From Laetmonice hystrix (lineage: Eukaryota): a stretch of 64,000 nucleotides of DNA. Position 1 is the stretch's first letter, and each line of letters starts with the position of its first letter. The position numbers were made by a program, and so were the translations under genes. Of the stretch, positions 1-22,347 are shown in pieces. The DNA is taken from assembly GCA_965235115.1 (NCBI GenBank), contig OZ249436.1:17362001-17426000 (forward strand), written 5' to 3'. The notes beneath the pieces are model-generated. The model was not told the origin of the DNA and did not search any database. It saw nothing but the letters and a program-made list of their open reading frames with translations.

Positions 1-378
1 CGCAAGGCCGTCGCAAACTCGTTGCGACCGTGGGAACGTGAAATCGCAAAGAATGAACATGTTCATTCTTTGCGACGACGGTTGCAGCTGAATCGCACCG
101 TTTTCCTGCTTACTACAAGTGTAGCCATCGCCGTCGCTCGTCGCAATGACGTGTCCACTGGATCAACCAACCAGAAGTCGCTATACTTGTCATGTGATTA
201 TTTGTACGCATATTGGTTGAAATGAGGCGGCAAATCAGGTGGGCTATCCCCTGTTCGATCGCCAAGTGTAGCAGCATTACCGATGCAACGAGCGAGAGAC
301 AAGCGACAGGCATCCCCCCGGTGGCGATGGGTTGTTGCAAGCAAATCGCTTGTTGCGTCGCCTAGTGTAGCACCAGCT
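1..378. mobile_element. PIF/Harbinger-type non-autonomous element, right part (left end outside window)
   Basis: Ends ...TAGTGTAGCACCAGCT followed by TTA (379-381), a Harbinger-like terminus with a TWA site. Contains a 32-bp palindrome at 44-75 and repeated TCGCAA/TTGCGA motifs. Confidence 0.6.
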
Positions 379-381
379 TTA

Positions 382-743
382 GCGATATCGACGGATAAAC
401 TGCTCCGAGTCGAAGTATGTGACGGGATCTATATATGTGAAAAGAACCGTCGTCTTCTCCCATGACGTTCCATGACAGTTTTCCCTCCCCAAAAAAGATT
501 TGAGACTTCCAGTGGATTTAACGAACACCTTTCTGCTGGTGTTCATAATTTGCGACAATGAAAAGGGAATAAAGACACCTTGAACGACATCGTCAGAACA
601 ACGAAAATTTTATGCAACAGATTCTAGAGGTTTTCGGGGTATCGTAACTTACGACACGTCCTAGAACAAGAACGACTTTTTATGCAACGGCTATTGTCGT
701 TGTTCATGGAAAATTTTATTTTCGTTGATTATGCAACAGGCCC
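382..743. mobile_element. Right part of a CWG-target MITE (NuwaI/Harbinger-like)
   Basis: Ends ...TTATGCAACAGGCCC then CTG (744-746), the same terminal style as the MITEs at 16209, 36952 and 51815. It truncates the LINE RT frame exactly here. Confidence 0.5.
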
Positions 744-747
744 CTGG

Positions 748-1560
748 CAGCTGGGGGTTGATTATGTTATCAACCCACTTCAGCACTAGTGATTCAAAAA
801 CCTTAGCAACGATTGGCGTCATAGATATTGGTCTTAGGCCTAAGTCTTTTTAAACTGCATTCAGGTGGGTGCTTCTTAGGAATCGGAATAATCGTTGCTG
901 ATTTCCATAACCTAGGTAGAATACCTTCCCAGGCTTAGAGAGCTGCTAAAGATTGCAGTAATTGGTGCAGCCAGCTGTTGGGAAAACTCCTTTAGAATCC
1001 ATGGTGGGGTATTATCAGGACCCATGGCTTTATTCACTTTTATCTTACTGAGAGCGGCCTGTACACTAATGGTGAATTCAGCTGGCACCTCAAATATGGG
1101 ATGAGTCGGTTGTAGTCTTGGTAGGTCATCACTGACCGACGCGAAAAATTCATAAATAGTGTTAGCCAGACAGACCATATCGCCATCGGTGTAGTTATTG
1201 GCCAAGCCCTTCATTACATTACTCCCATTTGTCGACATGGCCATGAGAAATTTCATGTGTTTCACGTGACGATGAATCCTCGGGAGATGCTATCTTCGAC
1301 TGATAGAAATCATGCCTAGTCTGGGTGCAGCCGCGGTTCACCATATTCCGCAATTTCCGGAACTGCCTTAGGTGACATGAGAGCCCGTTGTATTCGTCTC
1401 ACCAGGTTGCGGAAGTTATCCGTAATCCACGTGGGTTATCTGCAGTATGCAGATTTATACGGGAAGCATTCATTAATTAGTTGATCAATGGTTTCATGGA
1501 AAAACTGGAACTGCTCCTCACAGGTGTGCAAATATACTTCCACCTGGTGTGTGACAGCGA
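748..1560 (-). pseudogene. Decayed non-LTR retrotransposon ORF2 fragment (CR1/L2 group; pre-RT region and start of RT)
   Basis: Minus-strand translation gives PTWITDNFR, then KAMGPDNTPPWILKEFSQQLAAPITAIFSSSL, then after frameshifts IIPIPK and LRPISMTPIVAKVFESLVLKWV. These are canonical motifs at the start of LINE RT. Confidence 0.85.
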
Positions 1561-2588
1561 TGCCGCAAACATAGTGCGCTCCAGGTATCCACAAACTTCC
1601 AGAGTTAATAGGATCTTGTTGGTGTTTTCAAGCTCAGTTTTCAAGCTATCTTAATGGAGGGAAGGTTTAGCAGGCCAAAGAATACTGATGCCCAGATGCA
1701 TTACGTCATATGACGTAATTTGGGCATTTTATGACGTAATATGGACGTTTTCAGGTGAAATTTGAAAGGCTTTTCTCAATGTTCTGAGAAGATAGACAAA
1801 AAGCACTAATGACATTTGATTTGCATTAAGGCTCCTAAGACTTTTCTACATGAAGTTGACCTCTGACCCTTTCCCTTAGTCCAAATTAGGTCAAAGGTAG
1901 CAAAACGCTCAAAACCCTACTTCTCGCTCAATCTTTTCTGAAATCTCGCCAATTTAAGTGGTTCACAATGACAATCTCCTCAAAGGAAGTTATATGACGT
2001 TCCAATCTGACCTATTTTTACTGATTCGGGTGACCTTTAAGTTGTCAACCCTGACTATTAATCGTGGATAGAAATTAATATATGGCCTTTCAACTGCCAC
2101 CATTTTCATGGCATTGGCATGACCTTGAAAGGTCAAATCGATGACCTGCCAATATTCAGAGGTCTGTATCTTAGAAAACGTGCACGATAGACCCATAGTT
2201 AACTGTTAATCATGGATAGGAAGTCATATGGCCTTTCATTTGCCACCATTGTTATGTCCCGGCAGTGATCTCGAAAGGTCATGGTTCCATAGTTCTATGG
2301 TTCATACAATAAAGTTAATTGCTTATAAAACGACATATACTAGCCTATATGTAGGTGACCGATTTAACAGACGCTGTCTCAGGTTTGGAAATATGTGAGC
2401 CGCGGGGGTAGGCCGGCGCTTACTGGCTCACCCGCCGGGAGCGACCGGTGGGGGCCAGGGGCAGGGGAGCGAGGCGGCAGGCAGGCAGGACGCCAGAGTC
2501 CATGCAAGCAGGGATGATGCCGCCCTTGCAAAACGTCTCTAGACTAGAATGTAAAACACACATTCCGCCCAATAGCGCTCCAATATTA

Positions 2589-4526
2589 AGCCCGCCGTAC
2601 ACTGTCACGACTTTGCCCAACTCCCGACTCCCGACTCCCGACTGACCACCGTACACTCTCCCGATTATCTGCTCCCGACCCATGCAGTGTGGACGGCCAT
2701 AGATCGGCACCGTAGTTGGGAGGTCATCCAGTTCAACCCCCACTTGAACGCCCAGAAAGTGTTATTATAATATTTCTAGCCTAGGTGATAATAGTGTGAA
2801 GACTAACTGCTTGACCTGTTTAGCTTTCATTGTCACTTGTGACATCATAATAGTTTGCTACGTATTTTGATACATAATATTACAATATTTCACTGACAAA
2901 AAGGCTGTGGCGTCATAAAGAGGACGTGCGGCAGAGCCGTGAAGAGAAGGCTTAGATCTAACGTAGACTGCACTATTTTGCTGTCTAGCTCTCGTTTTAT
3001 CAACAGATGCATTAAAATACTACAGACACAGAAACATTAACGGTCAGTAGATATTCTCTGAAAATTATAGCATTATAATACCTGTGTAAACATCATTATA
3101 GGCCCCTGATCCTACACAGCTTCGATTGGAGCCTGGCTGTCTATTGTGATATTTAACGTCATTATCAAAGTTTTGGGAACTTTTAAATTTCCAAACAAAG
3201 CTCGCTGTATTCATAACTAAAAGGAGTCTCGCTAAAACAAAGACATCTATGGAAACCTTACGATGTGGGGAAAAATTCTAGGTACTTTTTTGTATAGGTC
3301 GTCGCGACAGATTTTGCATGGCAAGACCTGCAAGGTAGAGAAGTCACACGTTTTCAGTTTTTTTTATACGTTTTGGATGATTTTCGAATGGCCGTATTAA
3401 AAAGAATCCTTAAATCTATTTATTAAATTTTATACTGGACAAAAGCCACATATCTCTAGTTTCCTTTGCAATAATTTCCATCTGAATTGATTCATTGTTA
3501 TTACCACCGCGAGCGTGTTTTGAAGAACCCAAGGTTGGAAAAACTAAGCTTAGTCGGCCATAATCGGGAACCACGCTCGGCTCCCGATTCGTTTTTCGAA
3601 TCGGCTACAGCCCGCCGTACACTTTCCCGATTTTGCCCAACTCGAGTCGGTAACCATGGTTCCCGACTGCTCCCGACAGCTCCCGACTGCAGTTGGAGCA
3701 AATCGTAGCCGATTCGAAACCTATACAAAATAGTACCCAGAATTTTTCCCCACATCGTAAGGTTTCCATAGATGTCTTTCTTTTAGCGAGACTCCTTTTA
3801 GTTATGAATACAGCGAGCTTTGTTTGGAAATTTAAAAGTTCCCAAAACTTTGATAATGACGTTAAATATCACAATAGATAGCCAGGCGCCAATCGAAGCT
3901 GTGTAGGATCAGGGGCCTATAATGATGTTTACACAGATATTATAATGCTATAATTTTCAGAGAATATCTACTGACCTTTGAAGTTTCTGTGTCTGTAGTA
4001 TTTTAATGCATCTGTTGATAAAGCGAGAGCTAGACAGCAAAATAGTGCAGTCTACGTTAGATCTAAGCCTTCTCTTCACGGCTCTGCCGCACGTCCTCAT
4101 TATGACGCCACAGCCTTTTTGTCAGTGAAACATTGTAATATTATGTATCAAAATACGTAGTTAACTATTATGATGTCACAAGTGACAATGAAAGCTAAAC
4201 AGGTCGAGCAGTTAGTCTTCACACTATTATCACCTAGGCTAGAAAGATTATAATAACACTTTCTGGGCGTTCAAGTGGGGGTTGAACTGGATGACCTCCC
4301 AACTACGGTGCCGATCTATGGCCACCCACACTGCATGGGTCGGGAGCAGATAATCGGGAGAGTGTGGTGGTCAGTCGGGAGTCGGGAGTCGGGAGTTGGG
4401 CAAAGTCGTGACAGTGTACGGCGGGCTTACGATTTGCTCCAACTGCAGTCGGGAGCTGTCGGGAGCAGTCGGGAACCATGGTTACCGACTCGAGTTGGGC
4501 AAAATCGGGAAAGTGTACGGCGGGCT
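2589..4526. mobile_element. PIF/Harbinger-type non-autonomous element (outer copy, about 1.1 kb without the insert)
   Basis: TIR AGCCCGCCGTACACT...AGTGTACGGCGGGCT, TTA on both sides (2586-2588, 4527-4529), repeated subterminal CTCCCGA/TCGGGAG motifs. Confidence 0.9.
3609..4427. mobile_element. Inverted, internally deleted copy of the same element nested inside it
   Basis: Same TIRs with TAC duplicated (3606-3608, 4428-4430). The sequence is the reverse complement of the outer copy minus about 300 bp (roughly 3300-3595). Confidence 0.9.
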
Positions 4527-7923: not shown

Positions 7924-8597
7924 GGGCCACACTTCCACCAGAGGTCGCTTTTGCTGGAACCAACCTCTTCTGGTTAATAACTCAAACTCAATGACTTCCC
8001 ACAATCGGCAGGGTCGTAGTCACTTCAGAGATCGCCGTTCACTTCATTCAATCTCTGCCACACCCTGGGTACTGCTGGACAGCAGCCCGGCCACATGGCC
8101 CTTCATCCGCGCTTCCAGCACAAAAGGTTTTCTTAATTCTATAAGAAATGACAACATGATGATGATGACGAGATGAATGAAATTCGAGCAGTAGTCATTT
8201 TGAAGGGTTTACATGTTGTACTCTTTGAAAGGAGAGGCCTACCTTCTACTTCAATCAATCAATCAACAATTAATTCAATTCATTATTTATTCTTAGGTTG
8301 TAGATGTAGCTTTATGTAATGTGACCTTGAACATGCCTTCCGAAGTCTCCCGACAGGGAACAGAGACAAGCGTTTCATAACTTCGAATTCATACTTGATT
8401 CATAAATTAAGATATTCAGAAAACAGAACTTAACTTTCTTTTGGAGTGTCACAGGCTGTGATGTGTATAGTAAGTTTGATAACAAACAATAGTTGTGGAG
8501 TTATCACGTGTTGAAGTTGAGAGAACATTTTTTCGATGGGCCAACCAATGCTAAGTGACCGGAACCGGAATTTGACTGTCGCAAGTTTGGGCCACAC

Positions 8598-9059: not shown

Positions 9060-10054
9060 GGGCCACACTTCCACCAGAGGTCGCTTTTGCTGGAACCAAC
9101 CTCTTCTGGTTAATAACTCAAACTCAATGACTTCCCACAATCGGCAGGGTCGTAGTCACTTCAGAGATCGCCGTTCACTTCATTCAATCTCTGCCACACC
9201 CTGGGTACTGCTGTTTGAGTGACCCCTGACCTGACCTAGAAATCCCCGACTGGAACAGCCGAACATTGCCGAGCTCGAATCTTGTATGTCACTTGGTATT
9301 ATCTCGGTGTTGGGATTTAGTGGTACGTTAAATTTTACAGATACCATACAGGACGGCCGACTTTGCCCGTAAAAAGTCAGGTGTGGCAGAGGGGTATAGT
9401 GGAGCGAGCCCCTCTGCATTATGGGAGATTGGGTCGTAGTCTCCAGAGTACGGGCATGCGCAGTTTGAGTCTGGGCCTCCAAACCGCATTTCTCGTCGAA
9501 TCGCGCATTGTAACGTAACATACTTACAAACAAAAACACCGTCTTTGTCGTTGCATTGGTACTTTGGATATATGGATCATTTAAAAAAAGGGGACAATTG
9601 CCTCTCCAAGCTTTTGTGTGGAAACCCTTGTACTTAGAATGTTATGCAATTAGCCGTTATGTAGGTCTAGCTGAGCTCGCCATCTGCAATAAAAATCATT
9701 CAAATAGAATCTGTATTCTTTCCGTGAATAAAAGGTAGTTTACGACATGCACATGTTCTATCAGTTTTCCTTTAGAAAAGGTGCTTAAACGTCAACTACT
9801 CTGCAAACCCCCGTATTTCCTTCCCAAATGGTGGTAGTTTACGAATGCCACCTTATTAACATGTAACAAGGTTGTTTGTGCAGAAGGTTTGGGTAGAGCT
9901 GAAAGCAGTTAAAGCTGCTGAAAGCATTGGAAACTTTTTGTACAATTTACGCAGAGCATTTTTCCACGAAGGAGTTCAACGGGTTGAAGACACACTGCCG
10001 CCTATATGGTACAGTTTACGACATGCATTTTTTGTAGTTTACGGAAAGTCCTGT

Positions 10055-10506
10055 AGGTCATGACCCCCTATTTAGCCAATGGGCTGCTGGTTGTCCCTCA
10101 AAATGCTATGGAGTGAATGTATCTAGGGCCAAGAATGGATATAACCCCCCTGAATGTGCTCATCAAATACCACAGAGAAAAAGTTCACTATATATGATCA
10201 ATAATATCAGTGTATTATTAGAGAATATCTGCTTAACTTTCCTTGGAAAATCTTAGCCAATATGTTATGTATCACAGGCCTGTATTCTGGTCGATTTGGT
10301 GGTGCCACCTGGGGTCATGTAACAGAAGCTCCGATAAAATAAAATCTAATCATTCAACCTATACGTAAATTGAGTTTTTATTGTCGGAAACATGCATATC
10401 TAACCTGCCATGCCAAGCAGACATTCGCAGAAATTATTTTAAACATTGAAAATGGCCAAAACATTACATTAAATTATAGAAGAAAATAAATAGTGGATCA
10501 TAACCT
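10055..10506. repeat. Left long direct repeat (LDR), 452 bp
   Basis: Starts AGGTCATGACCCCCTATTT and ends AAATAGTGGATCATAACCT (16/19 inverted match). Identical by eye to 12606-13057. Confidence 0.95.
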
Positions 10507-10603
10507 GTAGGGGCCTGATGGGAAACTCACTATACAAAGGAATTTTACTTCTGGTTGCCAAAGTCAACATTCAGAGAGTGTCACCCATACCCACCAAAGC
10601 ATC

Positions 10604-11110
10604 ATGGAGCCGCGGCAGGCTGTCACAGAAGTACAGGGCAGGTTACTGAGTAAAAGTAGACTCGTTTGTGGAGGGTGCCTCCTGTGGACAGAGGCCAGGT
10701 GGGGAGATTCACATTATGGGGTTCTAAGTCTTCGTTTGCCAGGTTCCTCTAAAAAGATTTATTTTCGTGTCCATAGATTAGCCTATCAATTACACTACCT
10801 TATTCAACAACCAAATATTAACCACATTTCGGTTCAGATTTTAATGCCCCCCAACATCAATCTTCAGGGAGATAGGGTTGAAATTAGCCATTTGTGCCAC
10901 CAAACCCTGTGTGTGAATCCCTCCCACCTGACCCTTGAGCCACGTCCAGTGAATGCTGCAAGACGTGTTTGTAATGCACAGCAAGTTTGCACCCGGGAAC
11001 ACACCCCTAGGGCCCCCCCTAACTGTTTTTTTCCTGGTAGGTGTAGCTTTAGTTTAGGTCTAACCCCGAGCTCTCTCACCGCCATAATTTATGTTCACAT
11101 TTTTGTGTAG
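10604..11110 (+). CDS. His-Me finger (His-Cys box, I-PpoI-like) homing-endonuclease-type protein, 168 aa
   Basis: Motifs CLLWT, HYG, VHRLAY and EISHLCHQTLCVNPSHLTLEPRPVNAARRVC....C...H......C match the zinc-binding loop of His-Cys box nucleases. The ORF is uninterrupted. Confidence 0.9.
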   Translation: MEPRQAVTEVQGRLLSKSRLVCGGCLLWTEARWGDSHYGVLSLRLPGSSKKIYFRVHRLAYQLHYLIQQPNINHISVQILMPPNINLQGDRVEISHLCHQTLCVNPSHLTLEPRPVNAARRVCNAQQVCTREHTPRAPPNCFFPGRCSFSLGLTPSSLTAIIYVHIFV

Positions 11111-11877
11111 ATATGGTCACTGTGCTGAGTCTGTTTCAAGGCAAGATTTTTCTGGTAATAAGTTTTAGAATCCTGTGGTTCGCAGGTGTCCTTAAGCTTA
11201 AAAAGTGTCCTTCTTTTGTTGATTCGTGCATTCTTTTTCTTTGTTGACCCCCTGGCAAGTTTTCTGGCCATGTCCTGCTGCTGACGTCGCAGCAGGCCAC
11301 GTGTCACCCGTGTACCAGGAGTGACTGGGGCTCCCACAAACTCCGTTTGACTCAGGATTGAATCACCAATCCCTCGATTCACAGCATTCACAGCACAGTG
11401 CACTCTGGCAGCAAAGTTCCTTGAAAATGTTTTGTTCTTGGGTGTTGTACTGCTTATGGCCCTGTTGACAGCTTCACATTTTTGGGTGGTTAACAGGTGT
11501 TTGGTCTTTTCCAGGACTTTCTGGCCCAGCCTGTATTCAATCAGTCTGACCAGTTTCTCCTTGTCACCATCCGTGCATGTAAGGCCAAAGCCCTCAGGCA
11601 GGAATGCACTGTGTGACAGCCAGTTTTTCTTCTTTTTTGCTTTGCAAGGCCTTGCCTTGCACAGCCGGCCCTCACTGTCGGTGATGGTGGCTGCAGCCTG
11701 ATCTCCTCTTCCACTGTGTGTAGGTGAGCGGAGTAATTCGAATTCTTCTTTGGTGGGTCTTACATAGACACCTACGTCTGGTTCAGGCCTACCGGTCTGC
11801 TTTCTCAACTTGTAGGCGCAGTTACCAGGTTGAAAGCCATGTCTCCAGCTGTGCTTCTTTCTGCTACGTGATGTCAT
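11095..11877 (-). CDS. Kolobok-type DDD/E transposase, in-frame internal deletion derivative, 260 aa
   Basis: C-terminal TTQKCEAVNRAISSTTPKNKTFSRNFAARVHCAVNAVNRG resembles the TQNxNES..N..I....PK catalytic-Glu motif, followed by a basic tail. The protein is too short for a full transposase and no catalytic Asp region is recognisable. Confidence 0.8.
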   Translation of the reverse strand: MTSRSRKKHSWRHGFQPGNCAYKLRKQTGRPEPDVGVYVRPTKEEFELLRSPTHSGRGDQAAATITDSEGRLCKARPCKAKKKKNWLSHSAFLPEGFGLTCTDGDKEKLVRLIEYRLGQKVLEKTKHLLTTQKCEAVNRAISSTTPKNKTFSRNFAARVHCAVNAVNRGIGDSILSQTEFVGAPVTPGTRVTRGLLRRQQQDMARKLARGSTKKKNARINKRRTLFKLKDTCEPQDSKTYYQKNLALKQTQHSDHIYTKM

Positions 11878-12605
11878 GGTAGTTTTCTAAGAAATTCTCT
11901 ATAATTTAGGCGAATTTTTTTCAAAATCCTGTTCTAATCAAACAGAAAAATGATACTGAGTTTGATCTGCCTGTTGGCTTCATATATACCCACTCCCACC
12001 CTCTTCCCAGGCAGCTCAGACTCTCAAGTGGCACCTTTGAACCCCTCCCCCTAATAACCTAGGCTTCCTGCCTGGGGTGGGTGACCACCTTTGAGGGGGT
12101 CCATACATCCACACAGACACTTGGAGTACATCTCTTTTGATGTTTCTTTGAAGTTAACATCCTTCCCATATTCCCTCAACTGAATTTGACACTTTTGAAA
12201 TCCAACATAGGGAGATATGGGGATAAATATAATAAAGTGGACCCTTTTTTTTACTGAAAATATGACAGCGGGTACTCACATGCTTCATAGGGAATGAAGA
12301 TTCTCACTTTATATTTATTAATTTCAACTTTTGAACACTTTACATGTTGGCTTAATACATAACTAAAATGAGAAGTTCATAGATGAATTTATTCATTGTC
12401 TAATTTGTGCACAAAGTCAGAATACTGCTATGAGTGCAGGGCAAAATAGGGTTTTTTTTTATCTCCGAGTGTCCATATTGTATATGATCGATAACTCAGT
12501 CTTCATTTAGTCTACACCATTTATATTTTGTGTGGTTGTTGCAAACATATAACCATTAAAGGGGTCCAATTTTGAACAGATTCGGGGTGATGGGTCTTGA
12601 TCTGT

Positions 12606-13057
12606 AGGTCATGACCCCCTATTTAGCCAATGGGCTGCTGGTTGTCCCTCAAAATGCTATGGAGTGAATGTATCTAGGGCCAAGAATGGATATAACCCCC
12701 CTGAATGTGCTCATCAAATACCACAGAGAAAAAGTTCACTATATATGATCAATAATATCAGTGTATTATTAGAGAATATCTGCTTAACTTTCCTTGGAAA
12801 ATCTTAGCCAATATGTTATGTATCACAGGCCTGTATTCTGGTCGATTTGGTGGTGCCACCTGGGGTCATGTAACAGAAGCTCCGATAAAATAAAATCTAA
12901 TCATTCAACCTATACGTAAATTGAGTTTTTATTGTCGGAAACATGCATATCTAACCTGCCATGCCAAGCAGACATTCGCAGAAATTATTTTAAACATTGA
13001 AAATGGCCAAAACATTACATTAAATTATAGAAGAAAATAAATAGTGGATCATAACCT
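12606..13057. repeat. Right long direct repeat (LDR), 452 bp
   Basis: Copy of 10055-10506 at an offset of 2551 bp. Confidence 0.95.
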
Positions 13058-13289
13058 CTAGGTGGTTACATGGAAGGCTGTCGCGGCGTTGCCGTTAACT
13101 ACCAGTCAACGTATGTCACCGGTGGTCCTTAGGTACGATATCAACAACAAAAAACCATTTCGCTTGTATCAGCGGTCTACAGTGATTTCAATTTCGTATA
13201 TCTTAAATTTGCTCGCCTCGCACTCCCCGATATATTTTCTGCGGGTCCCCGTATCATAATGGATGTCAAGTAAAAGCAGGGCCGCTGCA

Positions 13290-13660
13290 GTAACCAATCA
13301 TAGATTTAGAACACCCCATCGAGGCCCCCTGGCCAGCCAACCATAGCCAACCTTCCATCGAGGCATGGCCGGCGGCGGCTGCTGCTGCCACACGACAAGA
13401 CAACCGCTCTGAACACAACGTGCAGAGCAATACAACCAACATCACTGTTGCTATGCCAACACGTGTAACAAACGCTCGCAGTACCCATCGCCAAACCCCA
13501 ATGTCCAACATAAATGGACGAGGTTGAAGTGGGGACTGGTTGTTGTTGGGATACCGGTGGATAACGTTTGGAGCCGATACACCCGACCGCGAGCTTGGCG
13601 TTGGTGAGTCGGTCATTAAACGTGCACCGCGTGTTTTGGGGTTTGATGTAGGCTGGCGGT
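13290..13660 (+). promoter_or_regulatory. Putative promoter / 5' region of the host gene
   Basis: CpG-rich, CCAAT near 13294, RFX X-box-like GTTGCTATGCCAAC at 13447-13460, upstream of an ATG followed by a GTGAGA donor. Confidence 0.35.
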
Positions 13661-14106: not shown

Positions 14107-14593
14107 GTGAGAAACTGGGCTGCGTTGGTTGGGAGACCCACACAGACTGTCAGGTGGAGGTCTATTACCTGTGCTGTCAACGTGAGAGGGACGGAGTCGG
14201 GGAGTAGATGTATGTGTCCCCTTGTCCAGGGTTGGGCACGGAAAGAACAATGAAATTTATTATCTCAACTCTGGCTCACAGTGGGCGTTTTATTGATATG
14301 TGAAAACGTTGGTGACACGTATTAACGTTCAGTGGTTGAGCCCCGAGAGCGTGTATAGATCATACAGCACCTAACCCACCGAGCCACACATCGACACAGC
14401 TGGCGGTGTGTGGGTATGGGTCTGGGTGGGTGTGGGGGCGGGCGTGGATCTCGAGGTGTCACCTGGATCATTGCGGGCGTGCTTCAGTACATTGGCCTGA
14501 TTACAGGCCATACTGTGACCCAACCATCGATTCTGGCCAAAAATGTGAATTTTAAAACCGGTTTATCGATGGCAACAGCCACTTGGGGTCGGT

Positions 14594-14662
14594 GATGACG
14601 ATGGGGTGATGATGATGGGGTGATGATGATGGGGTGATGATGATGGGGTGATGATGATGGGG
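14594..14662. repeat. 14-bp tandem repeat
   Basis: (GATGATGATGGGGT)n. Confidence 0.9.
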
Positions 14663-14749
14663 GTCAGCTATTCCCCATGGTAACATTTAAACGAAATTAG
14701 GGGCAGAGCTAGCAAGATTTAGGGGGGGGGGGGGGTCTAGGGACCGATA

Positions 14750-15240
14750 GTAGGGTTTACAGTGAGGCGTTGGGTTGGGGACCGGTGGTCGGGGTTACAG
14801 TGAGGCGTTGGGTTGGGGACCGGTAGTCGGGTTGGGGACCGGTTGTCGGGGTTACACTGAGGCGTTGGGTTGGGGACCGGTAGTCGGGTTGGGGACCGGT
14901 TGTCGGGGTTAGAGTGAGGCGTTGGGTTGGGGACCGGTGGTCGGGGTTACAGTGAGGCGTTGGGTTGGGGACCGGTAGTCGGGTTGGGGACCGGTTGTCG
15001 GGGTTACAGTGAGGCGTTGGGTTGGGGACCGGTAGTCGGGTTGGGGACCGGTTGTCGGGGTTACAGTGAGGCGTTGGGTTGGGGACCGGTAGTCGGGTTG
15101 GGGACCGGTTGTCGGGGTTACAGTGAGGCGTTGGGTTGGGGACCGGTGGTCGGGGTTACAGTGAGGCGTTGGGTTGGGGACCGGTGGTCGGGGTTACAGT
15201 GAGGCGTTGGGTTGGGGACCGGTGGTCGGGGTTACAGTGG
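14750..15240. repeat. G-rich minisatellite, about 38/60-bp units
   Basis: GGGGTTACAGTGAGGCGTTGGGTTGGGGACCGGTGGTC repeated. Confidence 0.95.
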
Positions 15241-19939: not shown

Positions 19940-20980
19940 GTGGGAGGGGGGGGGGGGGTGGAGGGGGGGAGGTCCTAGCTCTATGTGGGGATGGGGGGGA
20001 GGTGCTGGCTCCATGTGGGGGTGGAGGGGGGGAGGTGCTGGCTCCATGTGGGGATGGGGGGGGGGTGCTGGCTCCATGTGGGGGTGGAGGGGGGGGGTCC
20101 TGGCTCCATGTGGGGATGGGGGGGGGGGAGGTGCTGGCTCCATGTGGGGGTGGGGGGGAGGGGGGAGGTGCTGGCTCCATGTGGGGGTGGGGGGGGGGGA
20201 GGGGGGAGGTGCTGGCTCCATGTGGGGGTGGGGGGGGGGGTGGGGGGTGGGGGGGGGTAAGGTCCTGGCTTCATGTGGAGGGGGAGATCCAGGCTCCATG
20301 TCGGGTGGGGAAGTGTAAGGGCAAGGTCCTGGGTCCACGTCCGGGGTGGGGGTGTGATGGGAAGGTCCTGGGTCCACGTCGGGGGTCTGAGGGCAACCCC
20401 CTCCCGGGCCCCCAGTCCCCCTCCCTCCCCCTCCCCTCCCTTCCGCTCTCGGTCTCCCTGCCCCCTCCCTGTCCCCCAGTCCCACTGCCGCCCTCCCGGT
20501 CCCTTTCTGTCCCCTCCCTCCTAGTCTCCCTGCCCCCTGTGGCTCTCCCGGTCCCCCTACCCCCTACCTCCCTGCCCCCTGCCACCCGGTCCCCCTCCCT
20601 CCCTCCCTGCCACCCGGTCCCCCTCCCTCCCTCCCTGCCACCCGGTCCCCCTCCCTCCCTCCCTCCCGGTCCCCCTCCCTCCCTCCCGGTCCCCCTCCCT
20701 CCCTGCCACCCGGTCCCCCTCCCTCCCTCCCTCCCTCCCTCCCTCCCTCCCTCCCTCCCTCCCTCCCTCCCTCCCTCCCTCCCTCCCTGCCCCCTGCCGC
20801 CCTCCCTGTCACCCGGTCCCCTCCCTCCCTCCCTCCCTCCCTCCCTGCCGGTCCCCCTGCCGCCCTCCCTGTCCCCTGCCGCCCTCCTTGCCCGCCCTCC
20901 TTGCCCGCCCTCCCTGCCGGTCGCCCTCCCTGTCCCTCCCGGTCCCCCTCCCTCTCTTTCTATCCCTTCCCTCCCGTTCC
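19940..20980. repeat. G-rich minisatellite abutting C-rich low-complexity sequence
   Basis: GGAGGTGCTGGCTCCATGTGGGGG units to about 20390, then (CCCT)n/CCCGGT-rich sequence. Confidence 0.9.
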
Positions 20981-21447
20981 CCCGCCGTGAGACTGACCCA
21001 ATCTGCTGCAGACGTAATTACAGTTAACAGGTGTAGAAGATGACAGGTGTGGGGGTATGAGCTGAGAGCTGGACCGTTTGGTGACGTGTAGGAAAATCTC
21101 CACTAGGAGCAGCAGTCTGTGTGTAATCAACTCATGATCCTCTAAATATTGTACTGGAAGTGGTCGGTAAGGTTTGGTGACGTCCATCATGTTGTTTTCT
21201 TATAATGCTTCATTTAGACTGAACTGATGACCTGTTTCACCGGAAATACACATGGGGCAGTTCATATTTGTATGTTCCAACCCCCCCCCCCAAAGAAAAA
21301 CACCTTCACGGAACCTAGTAGAGGGTCTCTCCTCAACTGAGGCTGAAGTGTCACGTAAGACCCAGAATGGTAGGTTTAGAGGTCACCTTTGCTTAACGTA
21401 ATCCTGGATCAATGAAGAGTCCTGTACGGTTGATCTGGAGAGAGTTA

Positions 21448-22347
21448 AGCCCCTGTCACACTTTCCCGGATCGCACGACGGTTTGGAATGATCCGTAGCG
21501 GAAGGCGATCCGGCAGCTTCCGTGACCTGGAAAGGCGATGATGCGTGAAACTCCGTATCCAGAACGGGTCGATAAGGGTTGACACGGCTCCAGTAGGGGT
21601 TACTACGACATTGTTACGGGTTGAGAAGGATTGTTACGAATAGCTTCCCGGGGCTACTCCGTATAGGTACGGCTTACTATGGCTCACTACGGCTCTCTTA
21701 CGGGTTGATGCGGTTCCACTACGGATTACTACGGGCTGTTACGTATCTCCGACGGGTTATTACGGATCGAACAGGTTGGGGTGCTCGCCAATATATAGGC
21801 GAGCGTCACCACGTGCCACACGCGTTGGCCACCTTGATTTGAAGCAACCCGTAGCAAGCCATACCAACCCGTCACAATACGTAAGGTACCACCGTAGCAC
21901 ACCGTATCAACCCGTAGTGGATACGTACCAATACTTTGTGTGATCCGTTCCTATACCTACCAATACTTACCTATGCGTACCAACCCGGGAAGGATACCTA
22001 ACAACACGTAGTGGATCCATCACCGATCACGTGATCACGGCTTACTAGGGAAACGCTAGGTGTCCACTAAGGTTTGCTACGTATCGTCTACGGGTTACTA
22101 CGGGTCATCTACGGGTTGCTACGGATCCGCTACGGCGATTTTATCCGTGGTCGAAATCGAAAAAGTTTTGAACATGTTCAAAACTTTTCCACGGGTCGAA
22201 AGACCGCTACGAATCGGTACGGGTTGCCACGGGTAGCTACGGAACATCCCGGATCACGCCGGATCGGACCACGGATCATGCCGGATGCGCCCGTAGCCCC
22301 GATCCGGCAAGACCCGGCGCGCGATCCGGGAAAGTGTGACAGGGGCT
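21448..22347. mobile_element. Complete 900-bp PIF/Harbinger-type non-autonomous element
   Basis: Perfect 27-bp TIR AGCCCCTGTCACACTTTCCCGGATCGC, TTA TSD (21445-21447, 22348-22350), many TACGG/CCGTA motifs, internal 28-bp palindrome at 22161-22188. Confidence 0.93.

Follow-up and report, generated by a model that had tools for sequence, protein, structure and literature searches.

A young family of KolobokP-type transposons in Laetmonice hystrix and an internally deleted member with unlike flanks

A stretch of 64,000 nucleotides from Laetmonice hystrix (GenBank assembly GCA_965235115.1, contig OZ249436.1, positions 17,362,001 to 17,426,000), here called the window, carries two identical direct repeats on either side of two convergent open reading frames (ORFs). 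What kind of mobile element is this, can it move by itself, and how did it come to stand where it does? On its letters alone the locus had been described as a transposon resembling the KolobokP lineage, recently inserted and possibly active. We conclude with high confidence that positions 10056-13056 are a 3001-bp non-autonomous monomer of KolobokP type, in which a pair of long terminal direct repeats (LTDRs) encloses an internal region (INT). It derives from an autonomous element of 4.18 kb through an in-frame deletion of 1.22 kb. Coordinates are positions in the window unless a contig is named.

KolobokP elements were described in 2022 (Kojima & Bao, Mob DNA; PMC9587614). Their LTDRs measure about 450 or 660 bp, have inverted termini of their own (11-18 bp) and end in RR..YY, and insertion creates duplications of 3-5 bp. 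They code for a DDD/E transposase and, downstream on the opposite strand, a His-Me nuclease related to I-PpoI. In the signature of the transposase the first D is followed by a CCHC zinc finger, then by a C/DxxH motif and by a zinc finger that precedes the last E. Solo LTDRs, multimers of the form (LTDR-INT)n-LTDR and abutted INTs with one common tetranucleotide are reported, and internally deleted non-autonomous families are abundant. The autonomous families of the Pacific oyster are 4022-4748 bp long. Unequal crossover between LTDRs, provoked by the nuclease, was proposed in the same paper. The original prediction treated the role of the nuclease as an open matter, and a 2026 review still states that the model 'awaits experimental confirmation' (PMC13565253).

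The LTDRs of the window element occupy 10056-10505 and 12607-13056, both on the minus strand. They are 450 bp long, identical, and terminate in GG...CC; in the sense of the transposase the first is the right-hand and the second the left-hand repeat. Over 10051-10506 and 12602-13057 all 456 positions agree, and just beyond these limits identity falls to 25-50%. The limits of 450 bp were set by comparison with other genomic copies, and the remaining identical letters are flanking bases shared by chance. The direct repeats themselves are real and far beyond chance. A length of 452 bp from position 10055 had been given for them, which is off by one or two bases. Each LTDR also has the imperfect 19-bp inverted repeats that had been noticed (tips at 10056-10074 and 10487-10505 in the right-hand copy), which match at 16 of 19 positions, or 17 of 20 if extended one base outward. 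No further copies of the LTDR or the INT were found elsewhere in the window.

The INT (10506-12606, minus strand, 2101 bp) has the same tetranucleotide at both ends, TGTA on the plus strand of the window and TACA in the transposase sense. Only two ORFs of at least 100 aa lie between the LTDRs. The first encodes a nuclease of 168 aa (10604-11110, plus strand, frame open) and the second a transposase remnant of 260 aa (11095-11877, minus strand); they converge and overlap by 16 bp, as originally described. Upstream of the transposase start is a non-coding stretch (11878-12606, minus strand), and no ORF of 50 aa or more was found within 11883-12601. Full-length copies have this stretch too, and it is 97.8% collinear with the full-length copy at locus L031 described below. 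No resemblance to gag, reverse transcriptase (RT) or integrase was found between the LTDRs.

For the 260-aa ORF, Pfam gave no match at E<=1 and the PDB sequences none at E<=10; the profile search was positive for the nuclease and negative here. Its relatives at E<=0.001 number 603 library proteins, and among the best 150 of these the proteins of approximately 640-750 aa align best in their C-terminal ~180 residues. The ORF also matches ten longer proteins (577-719 aa), all of which contain PF20700, 'Mutator-like transposase'; Pfam was rerun on five of the ten. The closest relative, P0001 (719 aa), reveals a break in the alignment. Residues 1-76 of the ORF correspond to 53-127 of P0001 and residues 78-259 to 536-719, and the PF20700 domain of P0001 spans 161-536.

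The assembly (627 Mb in 35 contigs, cited below by handles such as C1) was searched with P0001, and 62 of 988 first-look candidates were scored. Six places, five on C1 (72.16-72.26 Mb) and one on C10, have an open frame of 670 aa that covers P0001 residues 46/49-719, and dozens carry the short, deleted form. Locus L031 contains a 4178-bp element (locus positions 331-4508) with two LTDRs. A 667-aa ORF encodes its transposase, in which PF20700 covers residues 106-485 (E 3e-52), and its nuclease is a convergent ORF of 164 aa with the same 16-bp overlap as in the window copy. An ATG-to-stop ORF of 667 aa was found in L031, L032 and L036. Five of the six open full-length frames lie within one array at C1:72.16-72.27 Mb (L031-L035), where LTDRs with TGTG flanks occur at least 26 times at a spacing of ~3 kb, alternating with DNA unrelated to the INT. 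TGTG was rejected as the true target duplication of L031, which lies inside this array, because the flanks recur at this spacing.

The 667-aa protein was aligned with 48 of 158 retrieved relatives, picked by a length of 638-751 aa. Fourteen columns are invariant across these 49 proteins: H122, C129, C153, D262, C308, C329, E342, D366, D368, H396, C470, C478, C485 and E542. D262, C308, C329, D366/D368, C470, C478, C485 and E542 stand in the order of the KolobokP signature, to which they were assigned by position rather than by a reference alignment. An AlphaFold (AF2) model built on this alignment has a mean predicted local distance difference test score (pLDDT) of 88.5 and a predicted template modelling score (pTM) of 0.86. 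Its best PDB match is ISCth4, of the IS256 family (E 2.4e-5 to 5.6e-4), followed by weaker matches to RNase T chains (E from 6.2e-3), P element transposase (6.2e-3) and Hermes (2.4e-2). With low structural template modelling (TM) scores of 0.24-0.46, the model supports a DDE transposase of RNase-H-like fold and nothing finer. In the Atlas, the closest clusters consist of PF20700 proteins, most often from Mollusca, and in one cluster Parabasalia are the commonest source, which may serve as a lead.

The window element and L031 are collinear and 97.5-99% identical on either side of a single gap. At this junction (11646-11649, minus strand) 2 nt stand for 1223 bp of L031, so that 1221 bp (407 codons) are lost on balance and the reading frame is kept. 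The 260-aa ORF thus joins residues 1-76 to residues ~484-667 of the full-length protein. Residues ~77-483 are gone, and with them the entire PF20700 core, D262, D366 and D368. The N-terminal and CCHC zinc motifs are likewise deleted, and of the invariant columns only C485 and E542 stay. Because the whole catalytic core is deleted, the window copy is unable to move alone and is non-autonomous. The prediction of a Kolobok-like DDE transposase therefore held in part: the ORF is a remnant of a PF20700 transposase, and it has neither a match to a DDE profile nor the core. The remnant is open at 260 aa in nine ORF instances among the examined loci; open frames of 263 aa were also found, and several copies have shorter remnant frames.

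The smaller ORF was expected to encode an I-PpoI-like His-Cys box nuclease, and the searches agree. It matches PF05551 (zf-His_Me_endon) at E 3.2e-14 with 53.7 bits, where the curated cut-off is 27, and I-PpoI chains at E 1.2e-4 over I-PpoI residues 80-127. The alignment conserves the Ser-His pair and two Cys, a His, a Glu, an Asn and a Cys (SHLCH..C.NP.HL..E...N..R..C), the equivalents of C100, C105, H110, E114, N119 and C125. Three more residues, Cys/His/Cys, follow downstream of the aligned stretch; these last three zinc ligands were assigned by inspection, and their spacing is altered. The second zinc motif of the window copy reads C-x5-C-x3-H-x7-C, with x3 as the final spacing in full-length copies, and the 168-aa form thus contains four residues more than the 164-aa form, inserted after the His and ahead of the last Cys. 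From its open frame and the retention of the aligned catalytic and zinc residues, the product is a predicted nuclease. The I-PpoI type is found in a group I intron and homes to an intron-less allele, whereas the gene described here lies in the INT of a transposon. An Atlas search with the nuclease returned PF05551/HNH clusters only, most of them labelled viral, and is also best taken as a lead.

The nuclease gene exists in several forms. Thirty-five ORF instances with a nuclease-like start were compared, from loci that overlap, so that the counts are not independent. In 24 of them the frame ends at 138 aa, ahead of the last zinc ligand, where a 10-bp insertion shifts the frame just short of the second zinc motif's final Cys. 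The others are of 164 aa (six, in full-length copies), 168 aa (three, all of them the window copy in overlapping loci) or shorter (two). In the window copy a run of C's is two letters longer than in the 138-aa form, which restores the frame with a gain of four residues. At position 11012, approximately half of the contig depth of public run X3 (25,206/54,407) is without the two extra bases. Both forms of the C-run are therefore common, and that of the window is no isolated assembly error. The truncation in 24 of 35 instances also indicates that membership of an array needs no complete nuclease in cis.

Was the element inserted as one piece? Four-bp target site duplications (TSDs) flank it at 10052-10055 and 13057-13060. 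The right copy reads TCTA, which is the target, and the left copy reads TGTA where the target has TCTA. Two contigs of run X3 represent an empty allele and join 10049 to 13055, skipping 3005 bases. One of these equals 13055-13400 with no differences or gaps, and 51 further letters fit the left flank. The empty allele reads GTCC TCTA GG. The flanks belong to an older dispersed repeat (9750-10050 and 13062-13195); for the left flank, scoring of all 33 candidates gave 56 matches elsewhere in the genome, with identities of 71-95%. Two paralogous copies of this repeat, free of the insertion, read ...GTCC TCTA G/A... at the matching point.

Because the empty allele lacks all 3005 bp, the LTDR-INT-LTDR unit and its 4-bp duplication are the result of a single insertion. 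This insertion at TCTA is either polymorphic to this day or was until very recently; the empty allele was seen in assembled contigs, which give no allele frequencies. The recent date that had been proposed from the identity of the LTDRs is thus borne out by the empty allele. Two marine metagenome runs contain the deleted form at low depth, and in run X1 the deletion junction is covered by one contig. The filled left junction, whichever of the two bases it was given, was not found in a scan of metagenome contigs.

The family is abundant and very uniform. At least 520 first-look candidates for the LTDR were obtained from the genome, and the 40 of them that were scored all show 99-100% identity. 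The deletion junction, probed as a 24-nt word, was counted at 339 places against 8 for the undeleted breakpoint, so that the deleted form exceeds the full-length form by about 40:1. Identity among the compared copies is 97.5-100%. Most deleted copies are members of tandem arrays with a spacing of ~2544-2548 bp (LTDR plus INT) or ~2094 bp (INTs without LTDRs), among them the arrays at C10:3.46-3.60 Mb, C29:1.66-1.72 Mb, C3:8.49-8.56 Mb, C4:32.57 Mb onward and C6:21.89-21.99 Mb. INT-INT junctions with one common TACA were counted at 167 places genome-wide. Solo LTDRs are present, and many loci carry the LTDR-INT-LTDR unit between 4-bp duplications, so that the solo, two-repeat and tandem arrangements whose counting had been proposed were all found. 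The deletion junction also occurs in isolated monomers at other loci, each with flanks of its own, and the deletion therefore came first and the spread of the deleted form after it. The suggestion that the family may be active is supported by its 339 deletion junctions and the six open full-length transposase frames.

The largest of these structures is an apparent 124-kb multimer at C1:66482265-66606202, in which the ATTA-flanked left and right LTDRs are 123.9 kb apart and many INT-INT junctions lie between them. LTDRs with identical AAAA or TTTA flanks recur at least 23 times at C1:21.876-21.974 Mb and ~50 times at C4:32.57-33.03 Mb. Three arrays of LTDRs with non-Kolobok DNA raised the idea that LTDRs drive the tandem amplification of neighbouring host DNA. 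This idea was downgraded, as the partner DNA at C1:21.88-21.97 Mb is itself a tandem repeat without LTDRs elsewhere (C1:38.15-38.18 Mb and C3:13.63-13.65 Mb). On this comparison, made for one of the three arrays, the LTDR there probably rides in a satellite, which is the simpler reading.

How might such a family operate? The few full-length copies would supply their 667-aa transposase, and this would recognise the inverted repeats at the LTDR tips and move deleted copies in trans. Arrays would arise and grow by unequal crossover between LTDRs, and the loss of an LTDR between two INTs would be seamless. In line with the proposal of Kojima & Bao, the I-PpoI-like nuclease may provoke the crossovers through a cut inside or at the LTDR. 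At one end of the LTDR the terminal 10 bp (GGTCATGACC; 10056-10065 and 12607-12616) form a perfect palindrome. A palindromic tip such as GGTCATGACC would suit a homodimeric His-Cys box nuclease, and we offer this as a lead.

Other readings of the locus have to be weighed against that of a non-autonomous KolobokP monomer. With both ORFs open and the LTDRs identical, the window copy could be taken for an active autonomous KolobokP element encoding its own working DDE transposase. Yet the 260-aa ORF has no DDE profile match and is without residues ~77-483, including D262, D366 and D368, and at 3001 bp the copy falls short of both the 4178 bp of the full-length element in this genome and the lengths of the autonomous oyster families listed in PMC9587614. 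The alignment, in which the PF20700 core is deleted, refutes this reading, to which we give almost no credence. The long direct terminal repeats, and the solo repeats elsewhere in the genome, could equally bring to mind a long terminal repeat (LTR) retroelement of the type of a terminal-repeat retrotransposon in miniature (TRIM) or large retrotransposon derivative (LARD), or else two independent miniature inverted-repeat transposable elements (MITEs) bracketing unrelated DNA. An LTR retrotransposon has TG...CA termini and encodes gag, RT and integrase, and the window element has GG...CC termini, repeats with inverted termini of their own, and a nuclease and a transposase remnant as its ORFs. 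The parent encodes a DDE transposase, the whole LTDR-INT-LTDR unit recurs with 4-bp duplications, and the empty allele lacks the entire 3005 bp at once. The exclusion of an LTR element in the original prediction is upheld, and this pair of readings is as improbable as that of an autonomous copy.

A further proposal is compatible with the preferred explanation and concerns the remnant. KP is an internally deleted P element that makes a repressor, and, as here, it is an in-frame deletion derivative that far exceeds its autonomous parent in copy number. The remnant might by analogy be a KP-like regulator that helped the deleted form to spread. The deletion is exactly in frame, the remnant is open in the window copy and in others, the deleted form stands at 339:8 relative to the parent, and the retained C-terminal 180 residues are conserved in the 603 related library proteins. 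However, at 97.5-100% identity the copies are too young for open frames to show selection, and the remnant frames are shorter in several copies. The remnant also lacks the N-terminal H122/C129/C153/C156 motif, the likeliest DNA-binding part, and the repressor role is that of KP. We regard a regulator as improbable, if less so than either of the readings above.

Several observations weigh against the non-autonomous KolobokP monomer as the explanation of the locus, or against parts of it. One copy of the duplication, TGTA, is unlike the target TCTA. Most nuclease instances stop at 138 aa, in the proportion given above, and a sequence search for relatives of the nuclease among proteins of 92-294 aa returned none at E<=0.001. 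The placement in KolobokP rests on architecture, PF20700 and motif positions rather than on a tree with named references. Mobilisation in trans and nuclease-driven growth of arrays are processes that we infer. As to the TSD, flanks are identical in 18 of 24 surveyed insertions, and the empty allele together with the paralogous empty sites gives a 4-bp TCTA target for the window element.

The unlike duplication is of interest in its own right. In the transposase sense the window insertion has TAGA on its left and TACA on its right, at a target that reads TCTA on the plus strand. A chance point mutation that gives exactly TGTA is unlikely (estimated at below about 0.3%), because the two 450-bp LTDRs are without any difference. 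TACA is the tetranucleotide that flanks every LTDR within multimers, since the INT begins and ends with it. Flanks were surveyed across the family from strings of 27-28-nt pattern matches, one pattern listing 100 of 156 places; left flanks with C at -6 were left out and arrays (n=3) were counted once each. TACA accounts for 7 of the 54 distinct non-INT left flanks listed.

Paired flanks were available for 24 insertions. They are identical in 18, as TTTA, TACT, TTGA, TATA, TACTA, TAAA, ATTA (twice), AGTA (twice), TGTA, AATA, GAAA, TATT and TACA, and in the arrays as AAAA, TTTA and TGTG; the two AGTA insertions have common 6-nt flanks and are possibly not independent. The six unlike pairs are TAGA/TACA (window), CGTA/TACA, AGTA/TACA, TACA/TATA, TATA/CATA and AGTA/TAGC. 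TACA is on exactly one side in four of these six, three of them besides the window insertion, for which alone among the one-sided cases the empty site is known. A weak target context was also seen around the AT-rich 4-bp duplication, with G following in 10 of 15 and C preceding in 7 of 15 perfect cases with context.

The one-sided pattern suggests carry-over of the donor flank, which would be a new clue to the mechanism of transposition. Tentatively, and at somewhat less than even confidence, we propose that a travelling KolobokP element keeps, on each 5' end, 4 nt of the donor flank as a single-stranded flap, and that this flap may be ligated where it would otherwise be trimmed. On leaving a multimer the element would take its two flaps along, and ligation would produce a heteroduplex of donor and target at each junction. 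After replication, each daughter would have a donor-type flank on one side and a target-type flank on the other. The flaps could come from an IS256-like circle with a spacer as long as the duplication, or from a staggered cut like that of piggyBac. A circle has been suggested from excision footprints by analogy with IS256-type circles that carry a short donor-flank spacer (PMC9587614), and a spacer of this type could explain the carry-over at the flanks described here. The fold match to ISCth4 agrees loosely with the circle route. Carry-over, if true, would account for TGTA/TCTA at a TCTA target and for the one-sided TACA in four of six imperfect duplications. It would also account for the same tetranucleotide at both ends of the INT and for the seamless loss of LTDRs at the 167 INT-INT junctions with one TACA.

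The unlike flanks could arise in other ways. In the assembly, TACA could have been written beside an LTDR by polishing, if reads from the hundreds of multimer copies were mis-mapped. Heteroduplex extension during recombination between LTDRs could also make the flanks unlike. It fits the cases with one mismatch (TAGA/TACA and TATA/TACA) and explains CGTA/TACA and AGTA/TACA poorly. No description of one-sided TACA flanks was found in the abstract, the Results, the first part of the Discussion and Table S1 of PMC9587614. If donor-flank carry-over is true, it would be invisible in ordinary Kolobok elements, where donor and target are both TTAA.

The relationship of the family to known systems can now be stated. 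With the published KolobokP elements, as far as their features are set out in those parts of PMC9587614, the window element shares LTDRs of ~450 bp, inverted termini of the repeats' own, GG..CC ends, a 4-bp TSD and a convergent nuclease. At the level of the genome the family shares solo LTDRs, multimers, INT-INT junctions with one tetranucleotide and deleted derivatives that outnumber their parents. The DDE core, present in the published kind and in the full-length copies here, is deleted in the window copy, and with this exception every published architectural feature of the lineage named in the original prediction is present. ISCth4 (PDB 6xgx, 6xg8 and 6xgw) is the best structural match of the transposase model, with a sequence identity of ~11% and the low TM-scores given above. 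It is a bacterial insertion sequence without LTDRs, zinc fingers or an accessory nuclease, unlike the family described here.

The transposition of piggyBac-type elements is seamless and targets TTAA. A putative likeness to the present family lies in the proposed 4-nt flank flaps and in the precise loss of LTDRs that restores one tetranucleotide. The transposase family is unrelated, and the targets here are not fixed to TTAA.

The family is probably new, and the KolobokP kind to which it belongs has been known since 2022. An exact search with four short words from the LTDR ends, which is a weak test, found no match to the family among the 228 consensus sequences of PMC9587614; the single occurrence of a 10-mer in that file falls inside the sequence of another family. 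An exact-word search with two peptide words found no occurrence matching the family in the supplementary files, and Table S1 includes no family that combines 4178 or 3001 bp with a 450-bp LTDR. The family had been thought uncatalogued, and going by these exact words and listed lengths it is probably not described in that paper. A literature search for 'PF20700' found no paper. The one-sided donor-type flank is the sole element of possible novelty.

A few features of the window lie outside the element. An exact direct repeat of at least 78 bp occurs at 8000-8077 and 9136-9213, 1136 bp apart; the search began at 8000, and the repeat possibly extends leftward. Minisatellites at 14591-15000 consist of a 14-bp unit of GGTGATGATGATGG type and a 19/38-bp unit that reaches the edge of the searched region. 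The block at 20001-22000 is GC-rich (0.62, compared with 0.48 for the whole window) and has a negative AT skew.

Taken alone, the window copy is unremarkable, since transposons of its kind were described in 2022. The genome that contains it nevertheless lends itself well, as a natural system, to the study of what is still open about KolobokP. Its family is both very young and still polymorphic, a handful of intact autonomous copies stands beside hundreds of deleted ones, the arrays exceed 100 kb and nature provides the nuclease gene in three forms (164, 168 and a truncated 138 aa). The one-sided flanks, if they are real and no artefact of polishing, constrain how Kolobok transposases cut and join DNA. 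Donor-flank carry-over, if true, would provide the first sequence-level view of the strand-transfer chemistry of Kolobok.

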